Source: Escherichia coli
GTDB taxonomy: Bacteria > Pseudomonadota > Gammaproteobacteria > Enterobacterales > Enterobacteriaceae
DNA length: 64,000 nt
NCBI RefSeq assembly: GCF_050920415.1
Contig: NZ_CP169309.1
Strand: one strand, 5' to 3'
The position numbers and the translations under genes are program-made. Numbering within the stretch: position 1 is the stretch's first letter; every line of letters starts with the position of its first letter. The notes under the pieces were generated by a model. That model was given only the letters and a program-made list of their open reading frames with translations. It was not told the DNA's origin and did no database searches. This document shows positions 22,722 through 32,016 of this stretch, piece by piece.

Positions 22722-23366
22722 CTATAGGCTGAACTGCACACCTTTTGCTACAGCAACAATTTTACATTCAGGTGTCAGTAAGGACGATTGATAGCGAGGA
22801 TTGAGGGGGCTTAAATACACGAGTTTTCCGTCGATGACTAATTTTTTTATAGTCATAGATGGTTCGTTTGTAAGCGGATCTGGGACTATTACAGCGACGA
22901 TACTACCATTTTTATATTTTTCTCTAGGCCTCATGATCACTGTGGCACCAACCGGAATGCTTGGCGACCCTGATGGGTTGTGCATAGTGTCATCAGGCAT
23001 TGAAACGGCAAAATCCCCCTCCTTGACGTCAAAGAATGTGGTGATTCTGTCGGCATTTCCCATAGTTTTCTCTCCTTCTAAAATTAGGAAAGAAATTGCT
23101 TCCCCCCATGAAAGATAGGGGATTTGGGTGCCTGAATTGTTCTGCACAAGGGTAGGTTCAGTAGACGATACTCCATATAGGAGATAGGACTCAGTAGTTC
23201 CTAGTGCTTGGGCTAATTTACTAAGAGCTTTGCTACCGGGTTCGTTTAGGTCTTTCTCCCAGTACCCTATAGTTACCCCTGTTACGCCAGAAAGCTTGCC
23301 CAGTTCGACTTGGGTCAGTCCCTTGTCTTTTCTGAGTCTCTTAAGCCTAATGCCAAGGCTTTCCAT
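22722..23366 (-). CDS. cI: CI-like prophage repressor (HTH_XRE plus S24 LexA-like autopeptidase)
   Basis: 214 aa from third ATG (RBS GGGAG); N-terminal HTH (LTQVELGKLSGVTGVTIGYWE); C-terminal S24 fold with Ser in GDFAVSM and Lys in TIKKL; divergent to cro-like gene. Confidence 0.9.
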   Translation of the reverse strand: MESLGIRLKRLRKDKGLTQVELGKLSGVTGVTIGYWEKDLNEPGSKALSKLAQALGTTESYLLYGVSSTEPTLVQNNSGTQIPYLSWGEAISFLILEGEKTMGNADRITTFFDVKEGDFAVSMPDDTMHNPSGSPSIPVGATVIMRPREKYKNGSIVAVIVPDPLTNEPSMTIKKLVIDGKLVYLSPLNPRYQSSLLTPECKIVAVAKGVQFSL

Positions 23367-23372
23367 CATCAT

Positions 23373-24114: not shown

Positions 24115-24964
24115 AAGCACGGTGTTCGGGGTTTTTTATGAGCAGCAAGCTTCATGGTCTTGTCTGGGAAGGGTGCGCCTTCACCGGCATGATCTTATCC
24201 AGGGTGGCAGTAATGGCTCGCCTTGCAGACTACAGCAATGACGAAGGTGTGTCATGGCCTGCAGTGGAGACCATTCGTCGTCAGATTGGGGCAAAGAGTG
24301 AATCAACGGTTAAAGCGGCGATAGCGGAACTGGAAAAGAACGGCTGGCTGACGAAGGAGGAGCGTAAGGTCGGTGGGCGTAATGAAAGCAATATCTACCG
24401 CCTTAATGTGGAAAAACTCGAAGCAGCAGCTGAGGCGGCGCGTGAGGCATATAAACCGAAAAGAAAAATTAGCCCGGCAAAAAATGACCCGTTAACAGTT
24501 GACCAGTCAAATATTGCCCCCTCAACGGTTGACCCGTCAAATTTTGATGGATCAACCGTTGGTAAAAAACAGCCGGTTAGGGGGGCGATGGTTGGCCCCG
24601 ATCCGTCAGTATTAAAACCTGATCCGTCAGATAAAAGATCTTTTCGTCCGGAAGCTTCGCAACCGGACCCGCAGACGGCTGAACAGGATTTTTTAACCCG
24701 ACATCCTGATGCGGTTGTGTTTAGTGCAAAAAAACGTCAGTGGGGAACTCAGGAGGATTTGGCATGCGCACAGTGGATCTGGGGGCGAATCGTGAGTCTT
24801 TACGAACAGGCCGCCAGCGATGATGGCGAGATCACCCGACCGAAAGAACCCAACTGGACAGCATGGGCCAATGACGTGCGCATAATGCGGATGCTGGATG
24901 GCAGAACTCACAGACAAATCTGTGAACCGCCCCGGGTTTCCTGGAGAGTGTTTTATCTGTGAAC

Positions 24965-25831
24965 TCAGGCTGCCAGATCATTGTTTCCGATGGAAGCATA
25001 ATAAGCTTTTTCTGCTTCTGCCGGAGGAGTATGGCCCAGCCTTCCCAGCAATCGTCGATTGTTATACCAGTCCACCCACGTGAGTGTGGCCAGTTCCACT
25101 TCTGCACGGTTTTTCCAGCTCTTACGGTGTATTACCTCCGCTTTGTAAAGACCATTGATGCTCTCAGCCATCGCGTTGTCATACGAGTCGCCTGTACTCC
25201 CTGTTGATGCCAGCAGTTTTGCTTCTTTTAGTCGCTCCGTATAGGCCAGTGACACATACTGAGAGCCTTTATCGCTGTGATGGATGGTGCCAGACGGACG
25301 ACGGGCCCACAACGCCTGCTCCAGCGCATCCAGCACGAATGTCGTTTCCATAGACGATGAGACCCGCCACCCCACGATGTATCCGGCAAACACATCAATG
25401 ATGAACGCCACATAGACGAAGCCCTGCCATGTGCTGACGTAAGTAAAATCAGCCACCCACAGCTGGTCAGGACGTTCTGCCACGAACTGACGGTTTACGC
25501 GGTCACCTGTGGCAACGGTTTTCCGGCTGACGGTAGTGCGGACCTTTTTACCCCGGAGAACACCGGCAAGTCCCATAACCGCCATGAGGCGCGCCACTGT
25601 ACATCTGGCCACCCTGATTCCTTCCCGTAACAACTGACGCCAGACTTTACGCACACCGTACACCTGATGATTTTCATCGTATACGCGCTGTATCTCTCTC
25701 TTCAGCCAGTCATCGCGCTGCGCACGGGCACTGCGTTTATCAGGATGATGCCGCTGCTGCTGACAATGGTAATACGTTGACGGGGCAATATGCAGTTCAC
25801 TGCATACCGGTCCGACCCCCGTACTGCTCAC
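24965..25831 (-). CDS. IS3-family transposase OrfB (DDE integrase domain)
   Basis: 288-aa ORF with DDE catalytic region; expressed as OrfAB by -1 frameshift. Confidence 0.85.
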   Translation of the reverse strand: MSSTGVGPVCSELHIAPSTYYHCQQQRHHPDKRSARAQRDDWLKREIQRVYDENHQVYGVRKVWRQLLREGIRVARCTVARLMAVMGLAGVLRGKKVRTTVSRKTVATGDRVNRQFVAERPDQLWVADFTYVSTWQGFVYVAFIIDVFAGYIVGWRVSSSMETTFVLDALEQALWARRPSGTIHHSDKGSQYVSLAYTERLKEAKLLASTGSTGDSYDNAMAESINGLYKAEVIHRKSWKNRAEVELATLTWVDWYNNRRLLGRLGHTPPAEAEKAYYASIGNNDLAA

Positions 25832-25852
25832 GCAGCTTATCCAGCAGTGGCA

Positions 25853-26179
25853 TTATTTTTTCCAGAGGCGGTCGAACTCCGCCTTCGCAAAATAAGCGGA
25901 AGCCTGGCGAAGGATATCGTTACTGCGGCGCAGTTCACGATTTTCACGTTCCAGCTCTTTCAGACGCTGACGTTCAGCGGTGGTGAGCCCACCATCACCG
26001 CTCCCGGTATCCCTCTCATGCTGGCGAACCCAGACACGCAGAGTCTCTGGCGTACAGCCAATCTTTGGAGCAATGGAACAAATTGCCGCCCATTGTGAGT
26101 CATATTCGCCCTGACTTTCCAGAACCATACGAACTGCGCGTTGACGGACTTCGGGGGAAAAACGAGTATTTTTAGTCAT
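25853..26179 (-). CDS. IS3-family transposase OrfA (HTH and leucine zipper)
   Basis: 108 aa, [19 protein letters not shown]...; recognised IS629-type OrfA. Confidence 0.85.
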
Positions 26180-26454
26180 CCTGTTTACCTCTTTCTCAGG
26201 AAGTTTAGTCTCCAGGATTTCCGGGGCGGTTCACTGCGAAATGTTTGGTCGGGTACAGCGGGATCCATTCTGGGTAAAAAACATCATGAGCCCGTCAAAA
26301 CTTCGCGATAAATGGGATGAGCTGGTTATCCGTCTGGGGCGTTCGCCTGTACAGCGTTGTGTGAATCATATTTCTGAACCTGACACCGAAATTCCACCAG
26401 GGTTCAGGGGGTAGGTATTGATTTCAGATCATGAGGTAATTTTCAGGAGGACTT

Positions 26455-26877
26455 GTGGCAAAAGTTTTTACACAAGAAGAGCGGGAAAAAATTAAGGGAC
26501 AGGTTGTTGCACTCGTACGCCAGAGTGGGCGCGAGACGTTACGACAGCTGGAAGCTAAAACAGGTGCGACAAGATATCTGATTAGCGTTCTTGCCTGGGA
26601 GCTGGTTGCCAGTGGCGATGTATACAACTCTGGCTATGGGTTATTCCCGTCAGAACAGGCTCGTAAGGACTGGCAAAACGCCCGCAAAAAACTATCGAGG
26701 GCAAAGGGGAAGAAACCGTCTATGGTTGATCCGGACCTTATCTGGTCATTACCTGACGGAGAAATTCGTCGCTACGATAGTCGCCATAACATGGTTTGTC
26801 GCGAGTGTCTGGAAAGTGAAGTAATGCAGCGAGTGTTGGCATTTTATCAGGGAAATGTTCGCTATTTATTGAAGTGA
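26455..26877 (+). CDS. hypothetical protein, possible DNA-binding regulator
   Basis: 140-aa ORF, GTG start with AGGAGG RBS; sits where a helicase loader would be in lambda. Confidence 0.45.
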   Translation: MAKVFTQEEREKIKGQVVALVRQSGRETLRQLEAKTGATRYLISVLAWELVASGDVYNSGYGLFPSEQARKDWQNARKKLSRAKGKKPSMVDPDLIWSLPDGEIRRYDSRHNMVCRECLESEVMQRVLAFYQGNVRYLLK

Positions 26878-27341
26878 CGAGATTAAAGAGCATTAATACA
26901 TATGTGAATTGACATTTCTGTGGCACAGGGCTAGAACTATTCTCATTGTCAGCGTTGTGCCAGAGTCTGATGTTTGTTGTACATTTGGACGAATAGACGG
27001 CGTTGTTAACTTTAAAAATAACACAGGAACACTTTGAGAAAGTGAACAGGCGTATTTATTTTTTGCTGATGAAGGAGAGTAACTTTAATTTGGGTAATTA
27101 GATTGATAATAGGCCAGACGAAAATAACATTCTGGCACACTTTTGGTCGCTACAGTCATTAGTTAATTTTAAGTGATAAATTTTTATCCATAAGTTAACA
27201 CTAGTGTGTCATCTAGCGAAACCGAATCGCTTTAATCCATAACTTAAAGTTGAATCAGTGGGGTAGCAGTAGGTATGCCGGAACTGATAAACTGTGCAGA
27301 AGGCTAAACATTCATTCACTCGTGAGATAGTAGCATAAATT

Positions 27342-27686
27342 ATGCAAAGAATTATTCCTGATAAAAATTGGTGGGAAAAAGAGCGTATTAATCGTAAAGC
27401 ATCATCAAAATGCCCATATGCTAGTTCATACAGATGTCCTCGGTACTATCAGAGTGTAGTTTTGCTCTCAAGCATCAATATGATAGCTGGTATGGCAACT
27501 AGGAAAGAAAAAGAGTTGGGCGAATTTGGGGAAAGAACTAGTTTCTCATATTTATGTGATGAAGAAGTCCCAACAGTTACTACAAAAGAATATGGCGGCC
27601 TTGCATCAGTTAGTAATTTTTGCCCAGAAATATCATTTAGATATTTACACTATTACGCCGATTATATGTGTAAATATGTTGATTAG
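27342..27686 (+). CDS. hypothetical Cys-containing protein (low-GC cassette A, gene 1)
   Basis: 114-aa ORF in markedly AT-rich DNA after a 460-bp AT-rich non-coding leader; Cys pairs CPY...CPRY. Confidence 0.4.
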   Translation: MQRIIPDKNWWEKERINRKASSKCPYASSYRCPRYYQSVVLLSSINMIAGMATRKEKELGEFGERTSFSYLCDEEVPTVTTKEYGGLASVSNFCPEISFRYLHYYADYMCKYVD

Positions 27687-27755
27687 ATAGATCAGGATAC
27701 TGGCAGGCGTAGTGCGGAAAAAGATAATTTAGAAAATGATTGGAAATATACATGG

Positions 27756-28208
27756 ATGTCAGTCAATCCTAAATTTTATTTAGATTGCGATGTTTTTGAA
27801 AGTGTCAAAAACTTCAATGAAGAATTGGCTAGTGATTACTTAAAGAGATTGCATCCAAATATCATTCAGCAAATAGATAGAATGAATAATTGCTTGGATA
27901 ATAATGACCCTGCGGGTGCACTGCACGCAGCCTCTAATATTCTAGAAACTATGGCGAAGGAAATCACTCAAAACCCGAATGTGGCAAATGAGTCATTGGG
28001 TGGTTTTTTTAAACAGTTCGAAAAAATGTCAAAATTACCTAAGAATCTTATTGATATTGTTAAAGATATTTATGATTTACGCAACAAACTACCTACTGCT
28101 GGACACGGAAGCTTGAACAGGCCTGAATTAACTATGGTAGAAGCTATAACTATTGCGGCAATGACAAAGGCGATTTTAGAAATTGAATATCGAAGCAAAG
28201 CCATCTAA
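27756..28208 (+). CDS. hypothetical protein (low-GC cassette A, gene 2); C-terminal R-N-x5-G-H-G segment possibly HEPN/Abi-like
   Basis: 150-aa ORF; predicted mostly helical; DLRNKLPTAGHGSLNRPE near C-terminus; no confident family assignment. Confidence 0.45.
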   Translation: MSVNPKFYLDCDVFESVKNFNEELASDYLKRLHPNIIQQIDRMNNCLDNNDPAGALHAASNILETMAKEITQNPNVANESLGGFFKQFEKMSKLPKNLIDIVKDIYDLRNKLPTAGHGSLNRPELTMVEAITIAAMTKAILEIEYRSKAI

Positions 28209-28705
28209 CAAACATAAATTATGTGGTTCAAATTCCCGCTATACTTCTGTGTTATTGCCGCCAGCGTCTACTTATCGCTGTGAGTTCAACGGGGCGATGA
28301 TGCGTTAGAGATCTCTGAATCGATTGAAGTCTAAGGTTGTCAGGGCTGTAACAGTAGCCCTGTGTCATGAAAGGATTGCATATTAATTAACGAAGAACAG
28401 ACCAATAGCATTGATAGTTGTTTTCAAAAATAGACCAATAACAAACACGACTGGCCATCTCATCGATTTTCGACAGTATGCAGAAATGGGCGGGATCCAC
28501 ACGCAGTACCAGCTTGCTAAGATAAACGAAAAGGAGACTTTAACCAGTCAGTGGCTGCATGCTGATGGTGATCCGCTATGGGCCGTAGATGTTGTTTGAT
28601 GTACGCAGAAAGAGACGACGAAGGGCACTATGCCGAAAACTAAATCGGTTTTAGAGATTAACCGCGCTGGTGAGCTGGAGTGATTGACTTTTAGAACGCC
28701 AGAAA

Positions 28706-28733
28706 GCAAAAACCTCACAATCGAGTGAGGTTT
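28706..28733. terminator. bidirectional rho-independent terminator between the two accessory cassettes (approximate)
   Basis: Hairpin AACCTCAC-aatcgag-GTGAGGTT flanked by an A-run upstream and T-run downstream; immediately 3' of the minus-strand cassette. Confidence 0.5.
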
Positions 28734-28746
28734 TGTTAAGGGCTTA

Positions 28747-29379
28747 CTATTTTTTGGCAATTAGTGCATGCATCGCCATTTCATGACCTTTTCTGCGAAG
28801 TTTTTTCACACGGGGCTTGAGCCTAGTGAAAGAACTTGGGCTAATTGTCGACTCAGCTTCAACTATATCATTGCGGGGAGCACCCGTTTTAGCATCTTCA
28901 TAGCGGATAAGTATTTTAAACGTGCCCTCATCAACTCCGACACCTTGCAAGTGATGAAGTTTAGATGAAACAGCACCGATTAAATAATCATGAATTCCTT
29001 GCAGGCCCGTTTTACCGATTGGTGAATAGGTATGCAACATATTTGCACCTACAGGAAGGAACTGGCGAAAGTCAGGAACATGCATCTTGTTAACTTCAAC
29101 AGAAGTGTATGCTTTCATGTCAAAAGAAACTCCAGGTTTCCGTGCATTGACTTCTAGCCATTGAGGCAAATCGAGAATATATTTGCTCTCAGCAGTTACT
29201 TCCAGTTTCTTCCTAGACGATAATGTCACGTCCATTACCTGAGCCATATCAGCCATAGAAAGCTCAGCGGCCTTCCGGTTGATGGCTTGTACCCGCTCGC
29301 TCACGTTAGGTCCGAATGCATCGAACAACGAAATTTCAGCAGCTGGTTTAATGGCTTCAGTTTTAACAGACATATACAC
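28747..29379 (-). CDS. hypothetical protein, partner of zeta-like kinase (cassette B, gene 2)
   Basis: 210-aa ORF about 19 nt downstream of the kinase gene on the same strand; no recognisable motif. Confidence 0.5.
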   Translation of the reverse strand: MYMSVKTEAIKPAAEISLFDAFGPNVSERVQAINRKAAELSMADMAQVMDVTLSSRKKLEVTAESKYILDLPQWLEVNARKPGVSFDMKAYTSVEVNKMHVPDFRQFLPVGANMLHTYSPIGKTGLQGIHDYLIGAVSSKLHHLQGVGVDEGTFKILIRYEDAKTGAPRNDIVEAESTISPSSFTRLKPRVKKLRRKGHEMAMHALIAKK

Positions 29380-29398
29380 TCCTTAGATAGGACACTTA

Positions 29399-30097
29399 TT
29401 ATACACCTAAATGCGCTAGATCGCTAACGTCTGAATATGGGCAGCTATGGGAGGTAGTCCAGTTTTCAAGGGTCACGTTAGGAGTATAGTCGACCACGAA
29501 CTGACCATCATTTTCAGGATCTTCCCGTCGATGATAAACATTGAGTGTAAATAGGCCTGCATATTTCGCGAGCATATGTTCAATGGTCTCTCTGCTCTTG
29601 AAAAAGTTCGCTTTAAGAACCTCTAACGGAACCTTACGAGAGCGGGCTTGGGCAAAAACCCACGCGTAAGCCGGATCAAAATAGACGTAATTCAGTGCTA
29701 CCTGATAACCAGCCTTCAGGGCCAGATCAAAGTTTCTCTCCGCAATACCTATACTGGAGAAAGTAGAGTCCATAACAATGGGATAGCCTTCAGATAGCGC
29801 TTTTTTGTAGATAAAATCGACCATTCTGGAGGCAGGTCTCTGATAGTCCACAGAGTTCTCTTCATTGTAGTAGGGGAACCACCAGCGAAAATCATCAGCA
29901 TCAATTCGAACAATGTTTGTGATGCCATGTTGTTCTAAAAGACGATTTAAGAGCTCGGTTTTACCTGCAGCAGGCGAACCAGCCATAAACAGGACGTGCT
30001 TGGCATTGGCATTTTTGTTTGCTGTTACGTAACTATAAACGTAAGGGCGAATTGCCTCACCAAACTCAGGCAGTATGGTTTCAAGTTCTTTTTTCAT
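29399..30097 (-). CDS. zeta-toxin-like P-loop kinase (cassette B, gene 1)
   Basis: 232-aa ORF; Walker A FMAGSPAAGKTEL followed about 20 residues later by RIDADDFR, the arrangement seen in zeta/PezT/AvrRxo1-type kinases; low-GC context. Confidence 0.6.
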   Translation of the reverse strand: MKKELETILPEFGEAIRPYVYSYVTANKNANAKHVLFMAGSPAAGKTELLNRLLEQHGITNIVRIDADDFRWWFPYYNEENSVDYQRPASRMVDFIYKKALSEGYPIVMDSTFSSIGIAERNFDLALKAGYQVALNYVYFDPAYAWVFAQARSRKVPLEVLKANFFKSRETIEHMLAKYAGLFTLNVYHRREDPENDGQFVVDYTPNVTLENWTTSHSCPYSDVSDLAHLGV

Positions 30098-30261
30098 CGG
30101 TAAATCATGCCGTGGTAGTTTTAGTTTTATTTAACAATATCATAAACGTTTAAAGATGGTTACAAATTAGCTAGATTTGTGAGCGCTTTAACCTCTAAAA
30201 CCCTCTGGAACCCAATACCGCTTTTCTGGCTGTCTTTTCAATACGGCATCCAGCGCATCAC

Positions 30262-30600
30262 TTACTCGGTCTGTATGCGGTTCATTGCTGAAGTCGCCAG
30301 TTGCGGGTAAATCTGCATCTCTGCGCCGTTTAAGATTCGCGTATTTACGCGCAAGCGCTCGATGGCTTCATTTTGCTGGTGGCTTTCCTTCCTCGCGGCT
30401 ATTCTAGCTATCTGATTGGCTGCTATGGCCTTTGCCGCTGTCATGGAATGCGCCAGAGTCTTATCCGTCATCATTACACGCTGCGTTTCCAGCATGCTGG
30501 AATGATCTCTTTTTGTTGTTCTTGAAGAAGAACTCTTATTCTTCGGTATATCATTTTGACAGGGGGCAGTGTAAGTATCCCTGCAAAACGAACCATTCAC
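30262..30600 (-). CDS. hypothetical protein (weak call)
   Basis: 112-aa ORF; the C-terminal 70 aa look protein-like, the N-terminal part may be spurious. Confidence 0.3.
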   Translation of the reverse strand: MNGSFCRDTYTAPCQNDIPKNKSSSSRTTKRDHSSMLETQRVMMTDKTLAHSMTAAKAIAANQIARIAARKESHQQNEAIERLRVNTRILNGAEMQIYPQLATSAMNRIQTE

Positions 30601-30610
30601 TTTAACAGAT

Positions 30611-30907
30611 ATGTCAATTTCCGCTCATCGTTCAAAGCGGACTAGAAGGTTAGCTTGCGTCGGACTTGGCGTTTTTAAAGAAGTGCTGGTGGTGACTGGT
30701 TGTTGTGTTCCATTTCTACAGAACAAAATCACAGAAACTATTCCCAATAGTTTTATTGAATCAATGATGAGACAGCCTCATATTTATCAGGACTGGTGTA
30801 CGTCCAATACAGGAGGTTGTCGTGCTGGTTCTCAAATGTGCGCTCGCTATTGCGGCTGTAATGGCAATTTATTGTCTTGCTGTTGTTCTTATGGATCGCC
30901 TTTCTGA
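30611..30907 (+). CDS. hypothetical Cys-rich small protein (weak call)
   Basis: 98-aa ORF; C-terminal 45 aa contain 9 Cys (CRAGSQMCARYCGCNGNLLSCCCSYGSPF); no RBS evaluated. Confidence 0.25.
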   Translation: MSISAHRSKRTRRLACVGLGVFKEVLVVTGCCVPFLQNKITETIPNSFIESMMRQPHIYQDWCTSNTGGCRAGSQMCARYCGCNGNLLSCCCSYGSPF

Positions 30908-31122
30908 TTGATTTTATATTGGCGAGGTGACGGGAGTTAAGTAGGATTGCTGCGGGTGCTTGAGGCTATCTGTCTCAGGCATGAATACCAACGGCAGATA
31001 GAGAAAAGCCCCAGTTAACATTACGCGTCCTGCAAGACGCCTAACATTAATCTGAGGCCATATCTATGACTTGCACACGTAGGTTAGCCTCTTACGTGCC
31101 GAAAGGCAAGGAGAAGCAGGCT

Positions 31123-31353
31123 ATGAAGCAGCATAAGGCGATGTTAATCGCCCTGATTGTCATCTGTTTAACTGTCATTGTGACGGCACTGGTAACGAGG
31201 AAAGATCTCTGTGAGGTACGAATCCGAACCAGCCAAACGGAGGTCGCTGTCTTCACAGCTTACGAACCTGAGGAGTTAGAGACCAGGCGAGGGAGAAATC
31301 CCTCGCCACCTCTGATGAGTCAGGCATCCTCAATGCACCCACACTTAACTTGA
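31123..31353 (+). CDS. hokD: Hok/Gef-family type I toxin (HokD/RelF-like) with C-terminal extension
   Basis: MKQHKAMLIALIVICLTVIVTALVTRKDLCEVRIRTSQTEVAVFTAYEPEE matches the Hok family; the expected stop after EPEE is TTA here and the ORF continues 25 codons; GC-rich hairpin GGCGAGGGAGAAATCCCTCGCC within the extension; in frame with an upstream mok-like ORF from 31066. Confidence 0.8.
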   Translation: MKQHKAMLIALIVICLTVIVTALVTRKDLCEVRIRTSQTEVAVFTAYEPEELETRRGRNPSPPLMSQASSMHPHLT

Positions 31354-31737
31354 TTCGGCGGGTTTATTTTATCTGTAAATATTTTTATAAAAATAATGCC
31401 CACACACAGCATAAAACAAAAAGTATCACAGATAAAAAAGGAGCGTAATGTGCAGATTTGTTGTTTTCCATATTTACTCGCTTTAACATAATCAATATTG
31501 ATATGGTTGTTATTTCGGTGGTTTCAAACGAGATATTATGGTGATCTGGCAAATTTGCATAACATTAAAATTTAATTTATCTAATCGCTTTTAATAATAA
31601 GCGTTGTGTTTTATCCCAGCAATCTGTTGTTTGATTTTTATTTCATTAATGTAGGGGCTTTACACTGGAACCAGTTTATTTATACTTTATACGCCAGCCT
31701 GAACAACTGGCACCTGCTGCGCCAGCAGAGACAACCG

Positions 31738-32016
31738 ATGGCGCACGATACCAAATTACACAATTCTGATGATTCTGCCGTCTTTGCCAGCAGGTGCGGA
31801 CGGCGTTTTCACGCATTCAAATCGGACTGGTTCCAGCATTCTCCATGCACTGAAGAACAGGCTGAATGGTTAATTCATTGCTACCGCAGACGCGGATACG
31901 AGATTAAGAAAGCCCTCAGCCCCGATTATCGTCACTGGATAATCTACGTCAGGCTTCCTTATTCCGAACGCCCACCGCGTCAGTCCCGCACATTCCAGCA
32001 ACGGATCTGGAGGTAA
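31738..32016 (+). CDS. hypothetical protein
   Basis: Internal Met of ORF 31606..32016; between hok and ydfU as in Qin (rem position). Confidence 0.35.
   Translation: MAHDTKLHNSDDSAVFASRCGRRFHAFKSDWFQHSPCTEEQAEWLIHCYRRRGYEIKKALSPDYRHWIIYVRLPYSERPPRQSRTFQQRIWR

Follow-up and report, generated by a model that had tools for sequence, protein, structure and literature searches.

The gpA-gpQ interval of P2 and the P4 elements are established hotspots for defence genes (PMC9122126, PMC9519451). Zeta kinases poison cells by phosphorylating UDP-N-acetylglucosamine (UNAG) or UNAM, or NAD in the case of AvrRxo1, and are restrained by a protein partner (PMC5923241). UNAG is bound by the GTXR motif (PMC6362051), and the substrate-activating, catalytic residue is an aspartate, D66 in PezT and D67 in zeta (PMC6362051, PMC5923241). 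Here we compare with these systems one interval of a 64,000-nt stretch of Escherichia coli DNA (contig NZ_CP169309.1; hereafter the window, in whose coordinates GC contents, open reading frames (ORFs) and limits are given). By homology, the interval is a cargo slot of a Rac/Qin-type lambdoid prophage, extending from a Ren-like DUF977 gene to hok/sok. It holds two cassettes: M1, with a dead gene for a candidate abortive-infection (Abi) protein, and M2, a probable toxin–antitoxin-like operon of a zeta-type kinase and a partner protein. We regard this explanation, taken as a whole, as moderately likely.

A variable cargo slot between DUF977 and hok/sok

Comparison by blastn with sister prophages (L002, L020, L022 and L023) places the limits of the variable slot, with cargo on both strands, at 26963-30605. 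Homology of the left flank with the sister loci extends to 26962; the left junction falls at 26962/26963 in four of the five loci and the right junction within 30606-30628, also in four of the five. A sequence-only reading of the window had drawn a low-GC island at 26880-30260, and the homology break with the sister prophages moves these limits to 26963 and 30605/30627. The difference in composition on which that reading relied is real: the GC content is 0.345-0.385 over 26800-28400 and 0.43-0.455 over 28400-30000 (thus about 0.35-0.45 inside) versus 0.48-0.56 in the flanks. The ORFs are also found where they had been placed (27342-27686 and 27756-28208 on the plus strand, 28747-29379 and 29399-30097 on the minus strand), as is the AT-rich non-coding stretch (464 nt at 26878-27341 without an ORF of note).

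The left conserved flank is the DUF977 gene (26455-26877, plus strand; phrog_142 ‘Ren-like exclusion protein’, E 7e-43), and DUF977 is annotated at the left flank in every sister prophage. The right conserved flank contains the sok antisense RNA of hok/sok (30954-31128, plus strand; Rfam RF01794, 108 bits, E 1.3e-24), the sole match in an Rfam scan of 26000-32000, with hokD annotated at the matching place in the sister prophages. In a megablast search of 26400-30700 against 5,426 complete E. coli genomes, the whole island occurs in seven, and more than 4,000 genomes match the flanks alone. A spread sample of 60 records yields at least 10 distinct cargo types between DUF977 and hokD. These alternative fillings include an FRG protein, AbiH with a hypothetical protein, an ABC-three-component system with DUF2326, DUF4209, an SMEK protein with a convergent methyltransferase pair, QueH, HNH and GIY-YIG nucleases, DUF7167 and RelE/ParE. 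PADLOC recognizes among them AbiH (3e-27), PDC-S15 (the FRG protein, 7e-99), PDC-S39 (DUF4209, 8e-103), PDC-M68B (3e-41) and an Argonaute-associated domain (9e-21). Strong matches occur in five of six alternative cargos (four sister E. coli prophages and the AriA/AriB neighbour of M2 in Klebsiella, see below). Across E. coli genomes the flanks are kept and the cargo is exchanged, as had been anticipated. The slot has the characteristics of a hotspot in the sense of Rousset 2022, with sharply bounded, variable content and a cargo enriched in known defence genes. Unrelated accessory cassettes would be exchanged there via recombination in the conserved flanks.

The earlier proposal of phage-defence cargo is supported by the swapping of cargo and by the known defence genes in the sister slots; the island itself gives no significant PADLOC match. 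The best values of its proteins in PADLOC-DB 2.0 (PDC-S32 0.0083, AbiJ 0.012, Cas13a 0.014 and DndF 0.041) are all non-significant. With PADLOC, NCBIfam, PHROGs and Pfam together, the kinase (Zeta_toxin) and DUF977 alone give significant matches.

None of the island genes is a core phage gene with a replication or recombination role. No P- or DnaC-like gene is present either, and to that extent the absence of a helicase loader had been rightly noted. It is, however, a trait of the prophage family and not an effect of the island, because the order of replication gene and DUF977 is no different in sister prophages that carry other cargo. The idea that the island replaced a helicase loader is ruled out by these sister prophages, which likewise lack one. 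The Klebsiella prophage sharing M2 has a lambda-P-like gene.

At the edges of the slot there is a 15-nt inverted repeat (26907-26921 and 30605-30619, AATTGACATTTCTGT / ACAGATATGTCAATT), complementary at 14 of 15 positions. It was considered as a general recombination site and rejected: it is present in all island copies and not in sister loci with other cargo. The repeat is probably due to chance.

Two mobile cassettes joined end to end

Cassette M1 (26955-28446, plus strand) consists of an AT-rich leader, a HEPN gene and a 3′ tail, and is a self-contained mobile unit. It aligns over 1492 bp, at 95.8% identity, with part of a P2-like prophage (L003 5001-6489), where it sits in the gpA-portal hotspot, with replication endonuclease and DinI-like genes on one side and the portal gene on the other. 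Cassette M2 (28447-30348, minus strand) carries the kinase–partner operon together with an upstream region and a terminator of its own; its alignment with a Klebsiella lambdoid prophage (L004 6924-5018) spans 1910 bp at 93.9% identity. The two matches abut exactly at 28446/28447. From these alignments, that point is where two cassettes, each mobile independently of the other, are joined in the slot.

In Klebsiella, M2 occupies an equivalent slot, with a lambda-P-like replication gene on one side and DinI, DUF968 and Q on the other. The AAA_15/21 and DUF4435 pair beside it (L004 7232-9136) is AriA/AriB (PARIS) by PADLOC. The same cargo adjoins housekeeping genes (icd side) in L006, which suggests that L006 is a truncated prophage. 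Beyond the prophages, the M2 core (28743-30145) can be aligned to an Enterobacter plasmid locus (L010) and the kinase portion (29225-30145) to a Pectobacterium locus (L008).

The opposed orientation of two cassettes, as seen in the sequence-only reading, holds, but its plus-strand ‘cassette’ is a single 867-bp gene with an in-frame TAA. An intrinsic-terminator-like hairpin (28709-28734, minus strand) ends the kinase–partner operon. It folds on both strands (-15.0 and -14.1 kcal/mol, z -4.1 and -4.3, matched by none of 200 shuffles) and, from its symmetric A/T tracts, is plausibly bidirectional. The central bidirectional terminator that the cassettes had been thought to share does therefore fold as such, but it belongs to the minus operon and is not a shared design, because 13 nt separate it from the end of that operon and 500 nt from the plus gene, and because kinase–partner operons elsewhere each carry their own hairpin there. 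An equivalent GC hairpin with a T-run follows the partner gene in L004, L008, L010, L024, L026 and L033. Another hairpin (28339-28360), tried as a terminator of M1, is no better than shuffles (z -1.3).

Just before the junction of the two cassettes are two 18-nt direct repeats, 33 nt apart (28393-28410 and 28426-28443, AAGAACAGACCAATAGCA / AAAAATAGACCAATAACA). Between M2 and the right flank, a spacer of 257 nt (30349-30605, no strand assigned) is specific to the island and lies outside both the Klebsiella match and the sister flanks. A 27-nt part of it (30570-30596) matches at 96% the intergenic region between DinI and DUF1737 in the Klebsiella prophage (L004 4526-4552, outside the M2 match), and could be a common regulatory or recombination site. 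A doubtful ORF of 77 aa (30262-30495, minus strand) straddles the M2 boundary, its 5′ two-thirds overlapping the spacer. It gives no PHROG, PADLOC or NCBIfam match and no tblastn match in phage genomes. It was rejected as a third M2 gene or antitoxin: it straddles the boundary, does not occur in other contexts and bears no relation to the small gene that precedes the kinase in Klebsiella.

A zeta-type kinase without the GTXR motif

The first gene of the M2 operon encodes a P-loop kinase of the zeta-toxin family (232 aa; 29399-30097, minus strand; Pfam Zeta_toxin 9.3e-29, with a secondary AAA_33 match at 4e-12). Among solved structures it matches PezT (2p5t, E 1.4e-10) and zeta (1gvn, 3.3e-4). 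In the alignment with PezT, K46 of Walker A corresponds to K45, D68 to D66 and D94 to E99. In 19 members of the subfamily, down to 34% identity, the invariant positions are Walker A (with K46), R64, D66-A-D-D-F-R71 (with D68), D110, T112, F113, R152, R154 and R169. The GTXR motif is absent: G116-T-L-R-T120 of PezT aligns with S111-T-F-S-S115, where T112 and F113 are invariant, S111 and S115 nearly so, and the subfamily consensus has no Arg at S114. The kinase is probably active, because its catalytic residues are invariant, and its substrate pocket probably altered, because GTXR is lost.

The lost motif (as defined in PMC6362051) would also suit a kinase that acts on nucleic acids or nucleotides and serves the prophage in metabolism or repair (compare T4 polynucleotide kinase, which acts on cleaved tRNA), with the partner as a cofactor and no toxin. 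The AAA_33 match and the PHROG matches to ‘polynucleotide kinase’ (1.3e-4) and ‘ATPase’ (6e-9) point the same way. Yet Zeta_toxin/PezT is by far the best match, the substrate-activating Asp is conserved, and M2 is mobile as two genes on their own, the kinase and its orphan partner; it is never found in a core phage position, and its DNA has no match in 50,697 phage genomes. We hold a metabolic or repair kinase to be improbable.

No epsilon/PezA-type antitoxin gene lies upstream of the kinase. The upstream gene varies by context (the doubtful 77-aa ORF, DUF1737, an integrase, metabolic genes), and nothing there is conserved across contexts, the downstream partner being the sole conserved neighbour. 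A palindrome (ACAAATctagctaATTTGT, 30162-30180, minus strand) is present upstream of the kinase, near a TATGAT -10-like hexamer (30144-30139), and could be an operator of the toxin–antitoxin type. It is not kept in the Pectobacterium and Enterobacter copies, in which the similarity begins at 30145.

An obligate, fast-diverging partner

The orphan partner (208 aa; 28747-29373, minus strand) starts at the ATG at 29373, after an AGGAG ribosome-binding site and 25 nt past the kinase stop; the GTG at 29379 given by the ORF finder was rejected as its start. The partner has no match in Pfam, PHROGs, NCBIfam or PADLOC, nor, by profile search, in PDB sequences. Its conserved first ~48 residues (…SLFDAFGP…AAELSMxDMA…) are followed by a hypervariable centre, a conserved element (‘GVDxS..V.IRYKDPKTG’) and a basic tail, for a total length of 191-261 aa across the family. 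AlphaFold2 with 15 homologues gives a pLDDT of 48, unusable for a fold search. The family is tiny, with 15 clusters in a set of 5.8 billion proteins and 39 representatives among 1.84 billion. It would escape defence-island statistics, and comparing prophage slots is what brings it to light.

In every context with enough sequence (seven contexts, this island included), a gap of 25-26 nt separates the zeta-like kinase from the partner downstream. When the same loci are compared two by two, identity is 84-88% for the kinases and 39-50% for the partners. The ratio of nonsynonymous to synonymous substitution rates (dN/dS, Nei-Gojobori) lies at 0.05-0.30 in the kinase against 0.44-0.61 in the partner. 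Four island copies (the window and L030-L032) have identical kinases, and L001 is 100% identical to the window. All changes between the partners of these four copies fall in the variable centre; four are nonsynonymous and none synonymous, too few for a formal test. Sequence conservation thus shows the partner as an obligate, fast-diverging companion of the kinase, and M2 as a self-contained, horizontally mobile and selected operon of two intact genes.

Besides the two prophages, M2 is observed on a P4-type integrase island of Pectobacterium beside a RelE/MqsA-like pair, on an Enterobacter plasmid among SNIPE/T5orf172 and HNH genes (the one plasmid with the partner in the plasmid search), in two-gene islets of Pectobacterium and Pantoea chromosomes, and on a plasmid-like contig beside Rep3 and UmuDC. 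Neighbours are defence-like in four of the seven contexts; the other three fit plain addiction equally well. M2 could then be merely a selfish module that stabilizes its carrier by post-segregational killing, with no anti-phage role. The copies beside Rep3 and on the Enterobacter plasmid and the bare islets agree with this, as does the presence of other toxin–antitoxin loci in the slot or its neighbourhood (hok/sok, and RelE/ParE in some strains); classical epsilon/zeta is itself a plasmid maintenance system (PMC5923241). Against it, M2 recurs in defence slots (beside PARIS in Klebsiella, with a P4-type integrase, among SNIPE/HNH genes), and a fast-evolving centre is more typical of a conflict interface than of a simple antidote. 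Pure addiction appears unlikely on this evidence, and the two roles are compatible, not exclusive. For M2, a toxin–antitoxin or phage-defence pair is the probable assignment.

M1, a decaying HEPN gene with a modular N-domain

The M1 gene (27342-28208, plus strand; 288 codons) encodes a Cys-rich N-domain and a C-terminal HEPN/Abi_C-like domain. Its leader (26963-27341, plus strand) has no ORF, a GC content of ~0.35 and lies inside the 95.8% match with P2; it travels with the gene and is presumed to contain the promoter region. In the island the gene is a decaying pseudogene: codon 115 is a TAA (27684-27686), read as GAA in the P2 copy, and this TAA is common to all five island copies (the window, L001, L030, L031 and L032). 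Substitutions occur also at otherwise invariant positions, W63G in the window and L001 and R34Q in L030. The intact P2 allele is WP_016569949.1 of strain 120899. Full-length proteins of 286-296 aa are found in Serratia, Salmonella, Hafnia, Pectobacterium, Shewanella, Vibrio and Pseudomonas, and the gene invariably stands alone. In a Salmonella prophage its neighbours are DUF4145 and a ‘GT4-conflict’ glycosyltransferase; in Vibrio they are DUF2971 and ParDE, and in Pseudomonas NACHT and KAP NTPases.

In the alignment, C24, C32, C94, C149 and H171 are invariant in the N-terminal part (~170 residues), and R247, H255 and G256 are nearly so in the C-terminal part. The C-domain has the HEPN four-helix fold. 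The HEPN catalytic motif is reportedly Rx4-6H. The match with Abi_C (PF14355) is below threshold: the best i-Evalue is 0.0032, and 6 of 22 members reach 0.1 and none 0.001. Some relatives are named ‘Abortive infection protein-like C-terminal domain’ in UniProt. The Cys-rich N-domain belongs to no Pfam family; Foldseek finds it alone or fused to HNH, TIR (Cap12/Pycsar-type) or HTH modules, and the HEPN part is replaced in some Pseudomonas relatives. This modularity is the pattern of a sensor with a swappable effector, typical of defence proteins. The M1 profile has no match among PDB sequences, and the protein has none in the phage genome collection. M1 is accordingly listed here as a one-gene candidate Abi protein, in which the Cys-rich N-domain would regulate a C-terminal HEPN (Abi_C-like) RNase.

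In the P2-like prophage, the intact M1 gene is followed (L003 6506-9514) by an opposite-strand gene for a 217-aa hypothetical protein and by an AAA ATPase and HNH endonuclease pair. Intact M1 occurs also on NZ_CP015088.1 (H14), a 29.5-kb record deposited as a plasmid from an O25b:H4 strain, which has a second copy on its chromosome. The record may represent a P2-like element in excised or episomal form.

The host prophage and its decay

The prophage of the window is a defective Rac/Qin-type lambdoid prophage of E. coli. Its genes are in the order repressor (LexA family; 22722-23372, minus strand, in the left part), cro, ydaT-like, HTH_36 replication gene, DUF977, island, hok/sok, DUF968/ydfU, rusA and Q, and the HTH_36-domain protein is its sole replication gene. 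An IS3-family insertion sequence (IS) of ~1.31 kb (24923-26233; orfA 25853-26179 and orfB 24965-25831, minus strand) splits this gene, which is intact in L001 (E. coli MFDS1022581), where the island is identical and the IS absent. No other carrier of an IS at this site is present among the complete E. coli genomes of the collection. With its HTH_36 gene split, the prophage is predicted to be replication-defective. The hok frame (31066-31353) overruns the normal …AYEPEE end, its stop being lost, and sok is intact. In RefSeq, hok is a pseudogene in L001 and L030; hokD is intact in L031 and L032.

With its replication gene split and the hok stop lost, the prophage could be taken as dead and the island as inert, decaying acquired DNA with nothing functional in it. 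The nonsense codon of M1 and its changes at invariant residues would fit, and AT-rich DNA is typically silenced in E. coli. The M2 operon does not follow this trend. Its kinase is identical in the four copies, which come from strains in Korea, the USA and Vietnam; neither of its genes is broken, dN/dS stays below 1 for each, and the ribosome-binding site and the terminator are preserved. An entirely inert island is very improbable.

A possible mechanism for M2

The most likely mechanism is toxin–antitoxin-like, with the kinase as the toxin and the partner as its antidote, because this is the established biology of the zeta family (PMC5923241). The kinase would phosphorylate an essential nucleotide-type metabolite; with GTXR lost, this is probably not UNAG, at least not UNAG bound in the classical mode. 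The partner would neutralize the kinase, probably via its conserved N-terminal ~48 residues, and its hypervariable centre may set the trigger for release of the toxin, either phage infection or loss of the element. A role in defence is well supported by context but unproven.

Several observations weigh against this explanation. The partner has no confident fold (pLDDT 48) and no likeness to epsilon, PezA or any solved chain; for this reason, neutralization of the kinase is no more than presumed. The islets of M2 between housekeeping genes and its copy beside a plasmid Rep gene fit selfish addiction equally well. The host prophage is decaying, with an IS in the replication gene and the hok stop lost, and its cargo may therefore be unexpressed. 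For M1, the Pfam match is below threshold (E 0.003), the spacing between R247 and H255 is 7 where 4-6 is canonical, and the loop 254-258 is modelled at low confidence. Neither the M1 nor the kinase–partner family has a significant match in PADLOC 2.0 or is mentioned in the texts of Rousset 2022, Vassallo 2022 and DefensePredictor; a 2026 domain-centric screen and supplements of Rousset 2022 and DefensePredictor contain no mention either.

A stronger joint reading would take M2 as a new two-gene anti-phage Abi system and the intact M1 family as a second new, single-protein defence; it is possible but doubtful. The zeta-like kinase, without UNAG specificity, may then poison another nucleotide pool (for example NAD, as AvrRxo1 does). 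The partner would hold the kinase inactive, with its hypervariable centre as a phage-protein sensor under diversifying selection. The M1 family would be built on a Cys-rich sensor domain that recurs widely, joined to HEPN, HNH or TIR effectors.

Comparison with described systems

The principle of the hotspot is already known; a limited open-access literature search found no paper that describes the DUF977-hok slot. As in the P2 and P4 hotspots, phage flanks are conserved, bounds are sharp and the cargo is diverse and rich in defence genes (PMC9122126, PMC9519451). The M1 cassette itself, at 95.8% identity, is common to this slot and that of P2. The slot differs in being in a lambdoid prophage, from DUF977 to hok/sok, with no cos site beside it. 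It is a lambdoid counterpart of the P2 and P4 hotspots and a place in which to seek more systems.

The described systems closest to M1 are the single-protein HEPN Abi proteins of prophages (HepS of Gifsy-1, AbiJ/AbiV/Abi_C, RnlA/LsoA). M1 differs from them by an N-domain outside any Pfam family, a sub-threshold Abi_C match, the spacing R247-x7-H255 and its state as a pseudogene in the window. The M1 family is that of a HEPN protein with an unannotated, modular N-domain, and we did not find it described in open-access texts.

In AvrRxo1, the antidote gene, ORF2, follows the kinase gene and encodes a small protein of ~100 aa; a kinase-first order has therefore a precedent. The partner in M2 is larger (~208 aa), with a hypervariable centre, and there is no secretion context. 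To our knowledge, M2 would be the first case of a zeta-type kinase with a non-epsilon, fast-evolving downstream partner, if it is a defence or toxin–antitoxin system. The likeness to AvrRxo1 of Xanthomonas, by description, is that of a zeta-fold kinase in a Gram-negative bacterium that belongs to a toxin–antitoxin pair and does not use UNAG (PMC5923241). With epsilon/zeta and PezA/PezT (PF06414), M2 shares the Zeta_toxin and PezT matches, the Walker A Lys, the substrate-activating Asp, an acidic residue at the position of PezT E99 and a two-gene operon on mobile elements. It differs from them in the replacement of GTXR by STFS (PMC6362051) and in its reversed order, with no epsilon/PezA gene upstream and an orphan of 191-261 aa downstream. 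M2 is a module of zeta type in which the substrate motif is changed and the partner is unrelated and in reversed order; we found no description of it in open-access texts. The practical value of the two cassettes is modest for now; the substrate pocket of the M2 kinase is probably unlike that of UNAG kinases and M2, if it is a toxin–antitoxin or defence system, would extend the small set of metabolite-kinase toxins.

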